Both the position numbers and the translations under genes were made by a program. A DNA stretch of 64,000 bases from a virus (Duplodnaviria; Caudoviricetes), in IMG/VR virus record IMGVR_UViG_3300042881_004206. The stretch is one strand, 5' to 3'. Positions 1,665-54,920 of the stretch are shown here, in pieces; positions within the stretch are counted from its first letter, which is position 1; each line of letters starts with the position of its first letter. The notes beneath the pieces are model-generated. The model searched no databases and was not told the origin of the DNA. It worked only from the letters and a program-made list of their open reading frames with translations.

Positions 1665-3227
1665 ATGGCAGCAGATCCATTTAACAGTTTAACAGGCTAT
1701 ACCGTAGGTATCCCGCCAGTACCAGTTGTTAGTAATACCGGTGTTGTAGTTGGAAATGTTAATACCAATTATGTTATTTCTAATAGTGTTTTTACAGATA
1801 ACCTACGCTACAGTAATGGACAACGATATGTACCGGGATCCAATAGTCAAATAGTTTTTAATAATGCTAACACCTTTGGTGCTAGCCCCAACCTTTCTTT
1901 CAACAGCTATACTAATTTTTTAGAAGTTACTAATCTTGCAGTTCCTGGAACTACTAACTTAGGTGATGTTTCTCAAGTTTCTATTTTAGGTGGAGACAAC
2001 GGATATTTCTTGCAAACTGATGGACTAGGTACATTAAGTTGGGTCGCTGGTACAGGTGGTGGTAGCAATGGTACACCGGGCGGCGCAAACACTCAAGTTC
2101 AATATAATGACTCTGGTACTTTTGGTGGAAGTGCAGGATTTACCTTCAATGAACTAACAAATACTTTAACCGTTGGTAATACTGTATCTAATTTTATTGG
2201 TAATCTTAATGGAACTGCATCTTTTGCCAATACTGCAGGAACTGTAACTAATAGTAGTCAACCAAATATTACAAGTGTTGGTGTATTAACAGGATTGGGT
2301 GTAAGTGGACAAATAGAAGCATTGGTATTCCAAGGTAATGCTGCTAACTTATTCAACATTCCAGCAGCTAATGTTGTCGGAGTCATACCATTAGCAGGTC
2401 AAGTATCTGAGAATAATCAACCAAATATTACAAGTGTTGGTACATTAACATCATTGGATGTTTCAGGTAATATAAACGGTGCAAATATATTTGGTTCTAA
2501 TAGAATAACAGCAGGTAATTTATTTGTCACAGGCAATACAAGCTTAGGTGGTAATCTTTCTATGAACACCGGTAGATTTATTTCTAACGGCAATGTTAAT
2601 TTCAATGGTCCTGAAGTTGAAATCGGTGAAGTCAGTAATTTAAAGATATTTGGTGGATTTGCCGGACAAGTGTTAACTACTGATGGAACAGGTAATTTAA
2701 GTTTCGTTGATCCAGGTGGCAGTGGTGCAAATCCAGGAGGAGGAAATACTGCTGTTCAGTTTAATCAAAGTGGGGCATTTGGTGGCTCATCATTCTTTGT
2801 ATTCAACAACGTTACAAACACTGTAACTATAAGTGGCAATCTTGTAGCAAACACCATTCAAATGGGTTCTGGAGCCTACAAATGGTCTACTAGCCAAGTT
2901 TATTTTGCACAAACAGTTAGCATGTCACCTGGTCAAGTTTTATATTCTATTCCTGTTGCAGAAGTATCAGGTGTAGAATTTGAAATCATTGCAACCGATG
3001 CCGTAGATGGATCTAGACAGTTTTGTAAAATTAGTTCAATATACTACAACGGTATAGTTCAATTCAACGAATACGCCAGTTTGTTTGTTAACGGCGGAGT
3101 TGGTAATTTTGAGGTTGATTTCAATCCTGGTAACGTAGTTGTACCGCCGTCGTTACAACTATTAGTTACCCCTAGTACTGCATCATCAGTAATGTATAAA
3201 ATGCTTATCACAGCATATGCACCATAA
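1665..3227 (+). CDS. Virion structural/fibre protein (520 aa)
   Basis: G/N/T/S-rich. Contains repeated 'GG.NTQVQ(Y/F)N..G.FGGS..F.FN' and 'L.TDG.G.LSW' fibre motifs. The C-terminal beta domain is shared with the next gene. Confidence 0.75.
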   Translation: MAADPFNSLTGYTVGIPPVPVVSNTGVVVGNVNTNYVISNSVFTDNLRYSNGQRYVPGSNSQIVFNNANTFGASPNLSFNSYTNFLEVTNLAVPGTTNLGDVSQVSILGGDNGYFLQTDGLGTLSWVAGTGGGSNGTPGGANTQVQYNDSGTFGGSAGFTFNELTNTLTVGNTVSNFIGNLNGTASFANTAGTVTNSSQPNITSVGVLTGLGVSGQIEALVFQGNAANLFNIPAANVVGVIPLAGQVSENNQPNITSVGTLTSLDVSGNINGANIFGSNRITAGNLFVTGNTSLGGNLSMNTGRFISNGNVNFNGPEVEIGEVSNLKIFGGFAGQVLTTDGTGNLSFVDPGGSGANPGGGNTAVQFNQSGAFGGSSFFVFNNVTNTVTISGNLVANTIQMGSGAYKWSTSQVYFAQTVSMSPGQVLYSIPVAEVSGVEFEIIATDAVDGSRQFCKISSIYYNGIVQFNEYASLFVNGGVGNFEVDFNPGNVVVPPSLQLLVTPSTASSVMYKMLITAYAP

Positions 3228-39873: not shown

Positions 39874-39901
39874 TTTTTGAGTCACCGCAGAGTGACACTT
39901 C

Positions 39902-39931
39902 AAAGGGGGCACTTCGGTGCCCTCTTTTTTT
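39902..39931 (+). terminator. Rho-independent terminator after gp23
   Basis: AAAGGGGGCAC-TTCG-GTGCCCTCTTTTTTT, a UUCG hairpin plus U-tract. A small GTCAC/GTGAC hairpin at 39880-39895 precedes it. Confidence 0.9.
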
Positions 39932-39961
39932 ATCTCCTAAATACCTACAAAGGAGATTCAT

Positions 39962-40471
39962 ATGACTGCTCTGAATAGAAATCCGCAGAACACCAATCCA
40001 TTACAACCAACAAAATTTCTTCTGACTTTCAGTAGAATATCCGATGTACAATATTTTTGTCAATCCGTAAACATACCAGGTGTTGGTCTAGGTGAAGTCG
40101 ATTATGTTACACCATTTTTGGATATATTTTTACCAGGCACCAAACTGAATTACGAACCATTGGAGATTGAATTTATAATAGATGAAGAACTGGCTTCATG
40201 GAAAAACCTATACAACTGGTTCACTTCCATTGCAGATCCAGATGGTTTCGAGAAGCGAGGTGTAAGTCAAGAGATTCAATATAGAAAACATTATTCTGAT
40301 GCAACCTTAACAGTATTGAGTGCATTAAATAATCCACTATTGCGTGTAGAATTCGCAAATATCTTTCCACTGACAATGAGTGATATCACTTTTGATACCA
40401 GATTATCTTCAGACACAATCATTACCGGAAGAGCAACATTTAGATACCAGTCATACAAATATTTGACATAA
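39962..40471 (+). CDS. gp3: Tail completion protein gp3
   Basis: 'N.LQPTKF.L', 'FCQSVNIPG', 'F.IDE.L..W' and 'FRY'; position after gp23. Confidence 0.9.
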   Translation: MTALNRNPQNTNPLQPTKFLLTFSRISDVQYFCQSVNIPGVGLGEVDYVTPFLDIFLPGTKLNYEPLEIEFIIDEELASWKNLYNWFTSIADPDGFEKRGVSQEIQYRKHYSDATLTVLSALNNPLLRVEFANIFPLTMSDITFDTRLSSDTIITGRATFRYQSYKYLT

Positions 40472-52544: not shown

Positions 52545-53483
52545 ATGAACGAACAACATGTGTTGTGGGTCGAGAAGTATCGCCCACAGAAAGTGGAAGA
52601 TTGTATTCTGCCTGATAATATCAAGGCAACTTTTCAAGAATATGTAAACAGAAAAGAAATTCCGAATCTTCTCCTTTCGGGAACAGCTGGTGTCGGCAAG
52701 ACAACCATTGCAAAAGCTCTGTGTAATGAGATTGGTTGTGATTATATTGTAATTAATGGTTCCGATGAGTCAGGAATCGATGTTCTTCGGAACAAGATTA
52801 AGAACTATGCATCTTCTGTTAGTTTATCTGGTGGTCGTAAGGTCATTATTATCGATGAGGCAGATTATCTAAATCCAAATTCAACTCAACCTGCACTTCG
52901 TGGTGCAATTGAGGAGTTCGCCTCCAACTGTTCGTTTATCTTCACCTGTAATTTTAAGAATAGAATTATTGATCCTATTCACTCTAGGTGTACAGTTATT
53001 GATTTTAAAGTAAACGGCAATAAAGCTAAACTAGCTACACAATTCTTTAAGCGTGTCGAATGGATTCTTGAAGAAGAAAATGTTCAGTATGAAAAAGAAG
53101 TTGTTGCTGCCGTCATCACGAAACATTTTCCCGACAATCGGCGAATTCTAAACGAACTGCAACGATACTCTGTTTCCGGTCGTATCGATAAAGGTATTCT
53201 AAGCTCAGTTAGTGATGTTCTAATTAATGAACTGATCAAATCACTAAAAGAAAAAGATTTTTCTTCTGCTCGTAAGTGGGCGACCAATAATCTAGATAAT
53301 GATCCTTCTCGGATTTTTCGCAAACTCTATGATAGCTTAAACGAATCTCTTAAACCCAATTCTATACCACAGTTGGTTTTGATTTTAGCTAAGTATCAAT
53401 ATCAAGCTGCGTTTGTCGCTGACCATGAAATTAATATGGTTGCTTGTCTCACAGAAATAATGGTAGATTGTGAGTTCAAATAA
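52545..53483 (+). CDS. gp44: Clamp loader large subunit gp44
   Basis: 'LWVEKYRP', GTAGVGKTT, IIDEAD and SRC motifs. Confidence 0.97.
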   Translation: MNEQHVLWVEKYRPQKVEDCILPDNIKATFQEYVNRKEIPNLLLSGTAGVGKTTIAKALCNEIGCDYIVINGSDESGIDVLRNKIKNYASSVSLSGGRKVIIIDEADYLNPNSTQPALRGAIEEFASNCSFIFTCNFKNRIIDPIHSRCTVIDFKVNGNKAKLATQFFKRVEWILEEENVQYEKEVVAAVITKHFPDNRRILNELQRYSVSGRIDKGILSSVSDVLINELIKSLKEKDFSSARKWATNNLDNDPSRIFRKLYDSLNESLKPNSIPQLVLILAKYQYQAAFVADHEINMVACLTEIMVDCEFK

Positions 53484-53869
53484 TGCCAGATATTTTTAAA
53501 GAAATAATCCCATCTATTCTGGAAACCAAAAAATCTGTTATAAATGACGATATTGATGCAAAGTCTTATGCGCCTTATATAGTCAACCGGGCCTTGTCCT
53601 ATCACTTGGATTGCGTTGCTTTCGTAAATGAAATGAACATGTATCCAGAAATCGATAAAGACATGCAATATCAGTATTATCTAAATAGTATTAGATCAAT
53701 GAAACGGAAATTTAAACCGTGGCAGAAATCTAATAAAGTTGAGAATATTGAGTGTGTGAAAGCCTTTTTTGGTTATTCGGACAACAGAGCCAAGGAAGCC
53801 CTCCTTATTCTCACCGAAGAACAAATCGCTGAGATAAAAATAATAACAGATAAGGGCGGAATGAAATGA
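53483..53869 (+). CDS. gp62: Clamp loader small subunit gp62
   Basis: 'Y.PYIVNR.LS', 'QY.Y.LNSIR..KR' and '..FGYS...A...L..L'. Confidence 0.92.
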   Translation: MPDIFKEIIPSILETKKSVINDDIDAKSYAPYIVNRALSYHLDCVAFVNEMNMYPEIDKDMQYQYYLNSIRSMKRKFKPWQKSNKVENIECVKAFFGYSDNRAKEALLILTEEQIAEIKIITDKGGMK

Positions 53870-54273
53870 TTAATGTAGAAGATTTAGTTGAAGTGACACT
53901 AAATGAACAGGATGATTTTCTAAAAGTACGAGAAACCTTAACACGGATTGGTGTTGCTTCCAAGAAAGAAAAAATTTTATACCAATCTTGCCACATCCTC
54001 CACAAAAGAGGGCAATATTACGTGGTGCATTTTAAGGAATTGTTTGCATTAGACGGAAAACCAACAGATATTACTGAAAGTGATCTTTCTCGCAGAAATG
54101 CAATTGTAAATTTATTGGAAGATTGGGGACTGGTAAAAATTGTCAAAAAAGAAAAGACACAAACACCAGAACCAATTTTTCTCTCACAGATTAAAATCAT
54201 TTCACATAAAGAGAAAAAAGATTGGCAATTAGTACCAAAATATAGTATTGGTAAAAAAGCACAAAAAGATTGA
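53866..54273 (+). CDS. regA: Translational repressor RegA
   Basis: 'DDFLK..ETLTRIG.AS.K...LYQSCHILHK.G.YY.VHFKELF.LDG'. Confidence 0.97.
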   Translation: MINVEDLVEVTLNEQDDFLKVRETLTRIGVASKKEKILYQSCHILHKRGQYYVVHFKELFALDGKPTDITESDLSRRNAIVNLLEDWGLVKIVKKEKTQTPEPIFLSQIKIISHKEKKDWQLVPKYSIGKKAQKD

Positions 54274-54299
54274 CAAATTAATATAAATACTTATATAAT
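54270..54299 (+). promoter_or_regulatory. Nested sigma70 promoter and T4 late promoter upstream of hsp20
   Basis: TTGACA (54270-54275), 18 nt, TATAAT (54294-54299), with a perfect TATAAATA (54282-54289) in the spacer. Confidence 0.8.
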
Positions 54300-54413
54300 C
54301 CTAGTCCCATCGGGATGGGAGCAGCAGTCCGAGGTCAGGCTGCATATAAATTCCTCGGGCCAACGCCTTTTGGGTTGGCATTATTAACTCGCTTATTTAA
54401 GGAGATTTAAATG
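54300..54413 (+). promoter_or_regulatory. Structured 5' UTR of hsp20: hairpin, H-type pseudoknot, hairpin and ROSE-like SD-sequestering hairpin
   Basis: Pairings are TCCCAT/ATGGGA; GCAGC/GCTGC with GTCCGAGG/CCTCGGGC; GCCAAC/GTTGGC; and CTCGCTTA/TAAGGAG with a bulged G. Confidence 0.7.
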
Positions 54414-54854
54414 ACCTCTATTCATAATCTTTTCGATTTTCACAAGTTTGATCCTTTTGCTGTCGGATTCAATGATGTTTTCAAGGACCTACAAGAAATG
54501 TCCAAGAATCTAAAGGCAGTTAGTTATCCTCCATACAATATCAAACAAGTCAAAGAAAACAAGTATGTTATCGAAATGGCTGTTGCTGGTTTTAGCAAGT
54601 CTGATATTGAAATTACTTTGGAAGGTAATAAACTTATCGTTAAGGGTAATACTCAAGAAAATGAAACCGACGACAATTTCATTTTCAAAGGTATTGCAAA
54701 TCGTAATTTTTCCCGTGAATTCAAAATCAATGACAAGATTGAAATTGAAAATGCAGAATTGGCTAACGGTATGTTGAAGATTTGGTTGCAGAATATGATT
54801 AAGGCACAAGACCTAGTGAAAAAGATTCCTTTGGTTTCCAAAGAAGAAAAATAA
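54411..54854 (+). CDS. hsp20: Small heat-shock protein (Hsp20/IbpA family)
   Basis: 'YPPYNI', 'IE.AVAGF.K.DI', 'KGIA.R.F.R.F' and 'A.L.NG.L.I'. Confidence 0.95.
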   Translation: MTSIHNLFDFHKFDPFAVGFNDVFKDLQEMSKNLKAVSYPPYNIKQVKENKYVIEMAVAGFSKSDIEITLEGNKLIVKGNTQENETDDNFIFKGIANRNFSREFKINDKIEIENAELANGMLKIWLQNMIKAQDLVKKIPLVSKEEK

Positions 54855-54884
54855 ATCGGTTATCTTTTAGGTAAATAACCGAAA

Positions 54885-54920
54885 GGGGCTCTTGACAGAG
54901 CCCTTTATTTTTTGTATAAT
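54885..54920 (+). terminator. Terminator hairpin overlapping a sigma70 promoter
   Basis: GGGGCTCT-TGAC-AGAGCCC plus T-rich tail. TTGACA (54892-54897), 17 nt, TATAAT (54915-54920). Confidence 0.75.

Follow-up and report, generated by a model that had tools for sequence, protein, structure and literature searches.

The short ROSE-like element consists of two hairpins, the 3' one of which pairs a U(U/C)GCU motif imperfectly with the Shine-Dalgarno (SD) sequence, and in Pseudomonas thermoregulation needs no more than hairpin II (PMC3669281). In phage T4, an H-type pseudoknot located 67 nucleotides (nt) upstream of the gene 32 AUG is followed by A+U-rich sequence and nucleates the binding of gp32; the T4 translational repressor RegA has operators that lack structure, are rich in A+U and lie at the AUG or just 5' of it (PMC3014915). 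Here we describe the leader of an hsp20 gene in a 64,000-nt stretch of DNA (IMG/VR record IMGVR_UViG_3300042881_004206; hereafter, the window) from a T4-like phage of lake water. The leader contains a ROSE-like core, made up of a hairpin (P3), an A/U-rich linker and an SD hairpin (P4), that accompanies hsp20 genes in phages and in some bacteria. It also contains an optional 5' domain, in which a hairpin of invariant sequence is followed by an H-type pseudoknot with two covarying stems. A literature search found no paper describing the ROSE-like core in phages, and the literature searched gave no description of how phage hsp20 genes are controlled.

A preliminary description of this leader, made from the sequence of the window, had named four elements: a 5' hairpin, a pseudoknot, a hairpin in potential competition with it and an SD-sequestering hairpin. 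All four are present in the sequence at the positions collected in Table 1. Its identification of the region as a phage hsp20 leader likewise agrees with the Pfam HSP20 domain encoded downstream and the perfect sigma-70-type promoter found upstream. In P3, GCCAAC (54359-64) pairs with GTTGGC (54374-79) over 6 base pairs (bp), and a bulged G54365, a CC/GG step and a UUUU loop complete the hairpin. In P4, CUC-G-CUU (54388-94) pairs with AAGGAG (54399-404) around an AUUU loop, leaving G54391 bulged. When 95 distinct P3-P4 modules were aligned with MAFFT (A1), compensatory changes were found at 6 of the 8 pairs of P3, with 93.8% of cells paired. P4 was pairable in 93.7% of cells, and its sole changes were C-to-U substitutions, which give U.G and preserve pairing. 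Slid controls of this alignment reached 46-52%, and none of 500 shuffles attained its covariation score. RNAalifold recovered P3 independently from the same alignment and did not recover the weak P4. The UCGCU motif (54389-93) is nearly invariant, with UUGCU in four relatives (L002, L009, L146 and L187), and the arrangement CTYGCT...AGGAG...ATG occurs once in the 64-kb window. P4 with its bulged G is the minimum-free-energy fold of 72 of the 95 leaders at 25 °C, and its computed median free energy is -5.5, -4.2 and -2.6 kcal/mol at 15, 25 and 37 °C, respectively, a marginal stability of the kind that would be expected of a thermosensor. The linker between the two hairpins might serve as a ribosome standby site or as a site for ribosomal protein S1.

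The sole thermoregulator families of Rfam to match the window were ROSE_3 (RF02523; 24.6 bits, E 0.024, gathering score 43) and ROSE_2 (RF01832; 22.7 bits, E 0.074, gathering score 65). ROSE_3 scored 31.3 and 27.6 bits in two relatives (L043 and L012, respectively) and 36.8 bits in a metagenome-assembled genome (MAG) of Bordetella. The ROSE_3 consensus has an ACUCGCU...AGGAG hairpin and an AUGCC-loop-GGGU apex, both as in P3-P4 of the leader. The published hallmarks of short ROSE elements are found together here, namely a position in the 5' untranslated region of a small heat-shock gene, a bulged-G anti-SD motif (in the predicted fold) and an upstream hairpin. The ROSE-like character that had been assigned to the 3' part of the leader is supported by its U(U/C)GCU anti-SD motif, by a bulged G, by a preceding hairpin and by the sub-threshold ROSE_3 and ROSE_2 matches in the window and its relatives.

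Relatives were collected by a protein-guided scan of IMG/VR, which gave 80 loci with Hsp20 proteins of 58-83% identity, and by searching for exact copies of the 5' hairpin 17-mer, which added 112 further contigs. In nearly all relatives a GC-rich hairpin, which varies, precedes an A/U linker, (A)ACUCGCUU, a loop of 3-8 nt, (A)AGGAG and ATG, and most have the P3-P4 core only, straight after a promoter. A covariance model built from the alignment of 95 modules (R1) found the module directly upstream of hsp20 in 7/7 cultured phages examined, which were Prochlorococcus phages P-SSM2 (45.2 bits) and P-SSM4 (39.4 bits), Cyanophage Syn2 (45.4 bits), Synechococcus phage S-CREM1 (39.2 bits) and Pelagibacter phages Mosig (42.4 bits), HTVC103P (41.6 bits) and HTVC008M (24.6 bits). 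Scanning 185,579 prokaryotic genomes for a sequence pattern yielded 72 matches, mostly chance occurrences in GC-rich DNA. Eight of these lie directly upstream of hsp20, and all eight are matched by R1; they include an Elioraea tepidiphila isolate, an Elioraea MAG, the Bordetella MAG and a gammaproteobacterial MAG. Since the model and the pattern match hsp20 leaders in both groups, the core appears to be an old hsp20-linked element common to bacteria and phages. Another R1 match in the window (39889-39967) was rejected as a false positive, as it consists of a capsid-gene terminator followed by an SD sequence, without UYGCU.

The 5' domain opens with a hairpin contained in the 17-mer GTCCCATCGGGATGGGA, which occurs exactly in 112 IMG/VR contigs, with one copy per contig. 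Among relatives selected by their hsp20 gene the hairpin is exact or absent, apart from a single loop variant; it offers no covariation. The 17-mer stays identical even where the Hsp20 proteins of the phages that carry it are up to 40% different. Sequence-specific recognition and recent exchange of the module are both possible explanations of this letter-for-letter conservation.

The score of the pseudoknot that follows the hairpin in the window was matched by none of 1000 dinucleotide-preserving shuffles. When a pseudoknot finder was applied to 63 distinct sequences located 3' of the hairpin, a strong H-type pseudoknot was found in 37, with a score reached by at most 1 of 40 shuffles. These 37 pseudoknots comprise 22 stem combinations, which group into about nine unrelated sequence types, in a common topology and position. 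The window type has stem 1 (S1) GCAGC/GCUGC and stem 2 (S2) CCGAGG/CCUCGG. Types found in relatives include S1 ACUACC/GGUAGU with S2 CCUGUG/CACAGG or GCCGCUG/CAGCGGU, S1 CAAGGU/ACCUUG with S2 GGUGGU/ACCAUC, S1 ACCGU/ACGGU with S2 GGCUGU/ACAGCC, and S1 AGUAGUU/AACUACU with S2 AGUCGG/CCGACU. Since MAFFT alignments of all pseudoknot types (A2 and A3) put the different geometries out of register, covariation was counted, in pseudoknot notation, only on the 15 rows of a sequence-only MAFFT alignment (A4) that share the geometry of the window. In this alignment 98.1% of cells are paired, compared with 29-43% in slid controls, and its covariation score was reached by none of 500 shuffles. S1 shows compensatory changes at 3 of 6 pairs, such as G-C to C-G at 54321/54343. 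S2, for which the preliminary description had named an absence of covariation as grounds for refutation, shows them at 5 of 8 pairs, with all of its cells (100%) paired. The loop that crosses S1 (L3) is 5-9 nt long in the 37 distinct pseudoknots, with 65% A and 4% G; L1 and L2 measure 0-3 and 0-5 nt, respectively, and no loop base outside the A-rich L3 is conserved among the nine or so types. Bases in the S1 loop are paired to a strand further downstream, each of the two helices has support, and on this comparative evidence we take the H-type pseudoknot to be real, with both stems covarying. At position 54348, within L3, lake RNA-library contigs of two studies have G in place of A, as do two relatives (L088 and L109), a loop change of the kind that the fold predicts.

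The preliminary description had S2 compete with P3 for positions 54359-60. Such an overlap is possible, as the outer two pairs of S2 (54327-28 with 54359-60) coincide with the outer two pairs of P3. The S2 positions that compete with P3 form mostly wobble pairs, and the P3 pair C54360-G54378 covaries strongly among the 95 sequences (GC 57, UA 14, CG 11 and AU 6), which assigns at least position 54360 to P3. Because of this covariation, S2 is more likely a 6-bp helix (54329-34 with 54353-58) that ends at 54358 and abuts P3.

The leader is modular. In a subgroup of lake phages the core is extended by the invariant 5' hairpin, behind which come the pseudoknot and/or other large inserts, and the hairpin-pseudoknot domain is optional.

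Table 1. Features of the hsp20 leader and its surroundings, in coordinates of the window.
Feature	Position	Strand	Basis
regA	53866-54273		Pfam Translat_reg, E 5e-48
Sigma-70-type promoter, TTGACA-18-TATAAT	54270-54299	+	12/12 consensus positions matched
TATAAATA, T4-type late-promoter-like motif inside the sigma-70 spacer	54282-54289	+	Motif count and recurrence in relatives
5' hairpin: TCCCAT (54305-10), loop CGGG, ATGGGA (54315-20)	54305-54320	+	Sequence
S1: GCAGC (54321-25) with GCTGC (54339-43)	54321-54343	+	Compensatory changes
L1	54326(-28)		
S2 as first described: GTCCGAGG with CCTCGGGC	54327-34 with 54353-60	+	Sequence
S2 5' arm, inside the S1 loop	54329-34, possibly 54327-34		
L2	54335-38		
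L3, A-rich loop crossing S1: ATATAAATT (AUAUAAAUU)	54344-54352	+	
S2 3' arm CCUCGG, directly adjoining P3	54353-54358	+	
P3, equivalent of hairpin I of the short ROSE-like element	54359-54379	+	Covariation, RNAalifold
Linker, single-stranded and A/U-rich: AUUAUUAA	54380-54387	+	A/U-rich, length varies in all relatives
P4, ROSE-type SD hairpin	54388-54404	+	Comparison and folding
hsp20 coding sequence, 147 amino acids, downstream of the leader	54411-54854	+	Pfam HSP20, E 3e-17; PHROG 432 'Hsp20 heat shock protein', E 2e-39
Intrinsic-terminator-like hairpin and U-tract, end of the hsp20 unit	54883-54906	+	Sequence scan

The genes around the leader are two clamp-loader genes (52545-53483 and 53483-53869), regA, hsp20 and a rubrerythrin gene, and the promoter upstream of the leader overlaps the regA stop codon. 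Because this perfect promoter sits where it does, an early transcript is predicted to start at the base of the 5' hairpin (about 54304-54307), which would then form the extreme 5' end of the transcript. Given the regA-hsp20 gap of 137 nt and this predicted start, the leader would measure about 105 nt. The arrangement of promoter and leader is repeated in relatives, in which the -10 box commonly ends 4 nt 5' of the hairpin, and in most related contexts the -10 box lies 1-7 nt from the first hairpin. The motif TATAAATA, which we take to be the T4-type late promoter consensus, is depleted in the 64-kb window (3 copies, 7.3 expected). Among 65 distinct related contexts, 45 have it 4-19 nt upstream of the 5' hairpin; in cultured phages it is found just upstream of P3. 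A second, late start near 54295 is thus possible, and hsp20 may have both early and late starts. Lake metatranscriptome contigs contain the leader contiguous with hsp20 (54265-54818 in one study and 54312-54580 in another); RNA-library contigs of this kind are mute on start, strand and level, and may reflect DNA carry-over, so they are no evidence of a start site. Behind the hsp20 unit, the next perfect promoter (TTGACA-17-TATAAT, 54892-54920) has a -35 box that overlaps the terminator-like hairpin, and it would drive an open reading frame of 62-66 amino acids that matches no Pfam family.

Two other readings of the leader sequence were rejected. A leader peptide could be encoded by an open reading frame of 31 codons (54315-54410) that ends just 5' of the hsp20 ATG, but in L001, the nearest relative, codon 8 is an in-frame TAG, and length differences among the pseudoknot types are not multiples of three. 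An anti-anti-SD switch, in which AGCAGU (54323-28) pairs with ACUCGCU (54387-93) as in the minimum-free-energy fold, finds the complement only in the stem type of the window and is attributed to chance.

We consider it reasonably probable that the leader is a short ROSE-type thermometer to which an optional 5' domain has been added that stabilises the mRNA or insulates the thermometer fold. In the cold, the UCGCU anti-SD motif would pair imperfectly with AAGGAG, with G54391 bulged, and would limit binding of the 30S subunit; warming would melt the marginal P4 hairpin and allow the phage Hsp20 to be translated. The P3-linker-P4 module (54359-54404) would have been inherited across the hsp20 genes of phages and bacteria. 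The 5' domain (54305-54358) may protect the transcript from 5'-end-dependent decay, shield the thermometer from upstream sequence, or both. This role is favoured, with moderate confidence, because the domain is 5'-terminal, stable, free in sequence and dispensable in most relatives.

Several points weigh against this interpretation. The thermometer function is proposed by resemblance to ROSE, and every Rfam ROSE match falls below its gathering score. The SD sequence is conserved for translation anyway, and since the pairs of P4 are almost invariant, covariation cannot prove P4 pairing. When coding bases are included, the fold of the window prefers an AU hairpin (54393-54401 with 54406-54414) and leaves the ROSE pairs a pairing probability of 0.2-0.3; the fold of the whole leader is not unusually stable (z -1.0), as computed by a program that cannot represent pseudoknots. 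For the 5' domain, a plain hairpin would suffice for 5' protection, so that a stabilising role does not account for the retention of a pseudoknot. Nor does it account for the exact conservation of a 17-nt hairpin, which may instead point to recognition of the sequence itself. The -10 box of 7 contexts ends just 1 nt 5' of the hairpin, and an early start there would therefore truncate it. Finally, the pseudoknot rows were pre-selected by the pseudoknot finder, a selection that the shuffle tests address. The competing AU hairpin, which pairs UUAUUUAAG with UUUAAAUGA over 9 bp, hides the AUG and half of the SD sequence and is specific to the loop and spacer of this phage. It and P4 alike would block initiation and melt on warming; the nearest-neighbour rules used omit the non-canonical pairs of ROSE.

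Among the alternatives, it is rather unlikely that the 5' hairpin and pseudoknot form a protein operator, from which a bound protein spreads over or blocks the ribosome-binding site in autogenous or phage-timed repression. Candidate binders would be Hsp20 itself, a homologue of gp32 or another phage RNA-binding protein. Gene 32 of T4 provides a precedent: here too A/U-rich stretches follow the pseudoknot, whose end lies some 50 nt upstream of the AUG. The exact 17-nt hairpin in 112 contigs would fit a sequence-specific binding site. The stems of the pseudoknot vary freely in sequence, however, so that a protein could read only their shape. Moreover, the stable hairpin P3 stands between pseudoknot and initiation region, and the 5' domain is absent from most relatives that keep both the gene and the thermometer core. 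The initiation region of hsp20, GAUUUAAAUGA, is A/U-rich like the sites of RegA. RegA could therefore act at the AUG independently of the pseudoknot, and could bind within the A/U-rich positions 54405-54414. The RegA-responsive pseudoknot suggested in the preliminary description finds no support, because RegA operators are unstructured and lie at or just 5' of the AUG, whereas the pseudoknot is structured and lies about 50 nt upstream. A phage or host protein might use hairpin and pseudoknot as a recognition platform through which infection stage or proteotoxic load, for example, becomes an additional input to the ROSE core; we regard this as unlikely. If true, translation of a phage chaperone gene would be switched by two inputs, and this would be the first pseudoknot operator of the gene 32 kind in any other gene.

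We find it quite unlikely that the pseudoknot is part of the sensor itself, stacked on P3 so as to tune the melting or folding pathway of the thermometer toward a sharper or shifted temperature response, and would thus have no stabilising function. In the window, as in several types, no spacer separates the 3' arm of S2 from P3, which makes coaxial stacking possible, and classical ROSE elements also have extra upstream hairpins, with three to four hairpins in all (PMC3669281). In some relatives, e.g. L088 and L120, inserts of 100 nt nevertheless split the pseudoknot from P3, and direct stacking is therefore not required. The GC-rich S2 should melt far above the range of P4, and the sufficiency of hairpin II in Pseudomonas (PMC3669281) also speaks against a part in sensing.

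That ACUCGCUU is a constitutive translational attenuator, or a motif for DNA or protein recognition, and resembles ROSE by convergence, seems to us improbable. The absence of P4 covariation, the sub-threshold Rfam scores and the low predicted occupancy of P4 in the window would all agree with it, as would the inclusion of cyanobacteria and SAR11 among the hosts, groups in which, to our knowledge, ROSE elements are undescribed. Against it, the hsp20 context coincides with the motif, its bulged G and pairing partner, and a preceding hairpin that has the ROSE_3 apex; an identical signature stands upstream of bacterial hsp20 genes, and the one change observed in P4, C to U, is one that keeps the pairing.

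Pseudoknot riboswitches consist of a stem, a helix between its loop and the 3' tail, and an A-rich strand in the groove. The pseudoknot here shares that topology, but a small-molecule aptamer of the preQ1-I or SAM-II kind, and with it the ligand response proposed in the preliminary description, is very improbable: only the topology and the A-rich L3 persist among the nine or so stem types, with varying L1 and L2 lengths and no conserved, pocket-like base in loops or junctions; the 6-8 GC-rich pairs of S2 should form without ligand; the fold overlaps neither the SD sequence nor a terminator (it ends at least 28 nt from the SD hairpin) and therefore has no expression platform; and no Rfam riboswitch matched the window or ten relatives.

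Several relatives carry further elements around the leader. Inserts of about 60-130 nt lie between the 5' hairpin or pseudoknot and P3 in L012 (1325-1445) and at the same position in L029, L065, L157 and L101; such inserts are also found upstream of P3 in L010, L026-L028, L002 and L009, and they have conserved loop motifs. One type contains GCCC-ACCUUA-GGGC, ACGGUAAAAGGCGUCCG and CCAG-UAUAAGGUAAG-CUGG, and another contains GCUCC-ACCUACCUUAG-GAGC, UAUUAAAACGG and CUGG-AnAACGUAA-CCAG. An Rfam search of the upstream modules of the window and ten relatives matched no family, and the inserts look like undescribed structured RNA modules. Their ACCUUA resembles the 3' tail of 16S rRNA, and UAAGGU resembles an SD sequence; a kissing loop between the two is unsupported, as many relatives have UAAAGU with ACCUU unchanged. 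In another group (L121, 7630-7854; L003-L008, L135, L138, L158 and L165) the leader precedes a gene of 74 amino acids, which matched no family of Pfam or PHROGs, and hsp20 comes next. The end of this gene carries UU(U/C)GCUA located 7-8 nt 5' of the AAGGAG of hsp20, and because this motif recurs there, a second ROSE-like pairing may be embedded in the coding sequence. Lastly, a MAG contig that also has an hsp20 leader, L259, and is probably of phage origin, contains a match to the glutamine riboswitch (3036-3092; 34.2 bits, threshold 35).

Few host-like genes are shared as widely among the T4-like phages of marine and fresh waters as the hsp20 gene, and a conserved cis-regulatory RNA precedes it in cultured cyanophages, pelagiphages and uncultured lake phages. 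A temperature-gated phage chaperone, as suggested here, would bear on the outcome of infection in relation to water temperature. The range of ROSE-type elements would be widened to viruses and to further host groups, in leaders that current Rfam models miss. In addition, the pseudoknot, the invariant hairpin and the inserts of relatives appear to be new structured-RNA modules.

Compared with known systems, the outermost part of the leader recalls 5'-terminal mRNA stabilisers. The E. coli ompA leader is a 5'-terminal stem-loop that stabilises its mRNA. The hsp20 leader similarly has a stable structure within a few nt of the predicted transcript 5' end; it differs in comprising a hairpin plus a pseudoknot, with an invariant hairpin sequence, and a stabilising effect is hypothetical here. 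The leader of gene 32 in T4 and T2 likewise places an H-type pseudoknot close to the 5' terminus of a T4-like phage mRNA, tens of nt 5' of the AUG and followed by A/U-rich sequence (PMC3014915). In contrast, hsp20 does not encode a single-stranded DNA-binding protein, the two leaders have no sequence similarity, a hairpin and a ROSE-type SD hairpin intervene here between pseudoknot and start codon, and protein binding would be a positional analogy. Classical ROSE elements (ROSE1 of Bradyrhizobium hspA and that of E. coli ibpA; RF00435 and RF01832) share the anti-SD motif, the bulged G opposite the SD sequence, the gene class and the presence of extra upstream helices. They are built of simple hairpins with no pseudoknot (PMC3669281), and the ROSE_2 score of the leader is 22.7 bits, compared with the 65 of that family's threshold. 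The closest likeness is to the short ROSE of Pseudomonas ibpA (ROSE_3, RF02523; Krajewski et al. 2013, PMC3669281), with which the leader shares two hairpins in a small heat-shock 5' untranslated region, an imperfect pairing of U(U/C)GCU with the SD inside the 3' hairpin that leaves the start codon free, and the AUGCC-loop-GGGU apex of the consensus in hairpin I. Unlike ROSE_3, the leader scores 24.6 bits against a gathering score of 43, its P4 is shorter and more A/U-rich, and the carriers are phages of cyanobacteria, SAR11 and lake hosts, not gamma- or alphaproteobacterial chromosomes. With its extra 5' hairpin and pseudoknot and its putative thermometer function, the leader of the window would be a short ROSE-type element carried by a phage and fitted with a modular 5' domain of hairpin and pseudoknot, a variant beyond the ROSE elements described.

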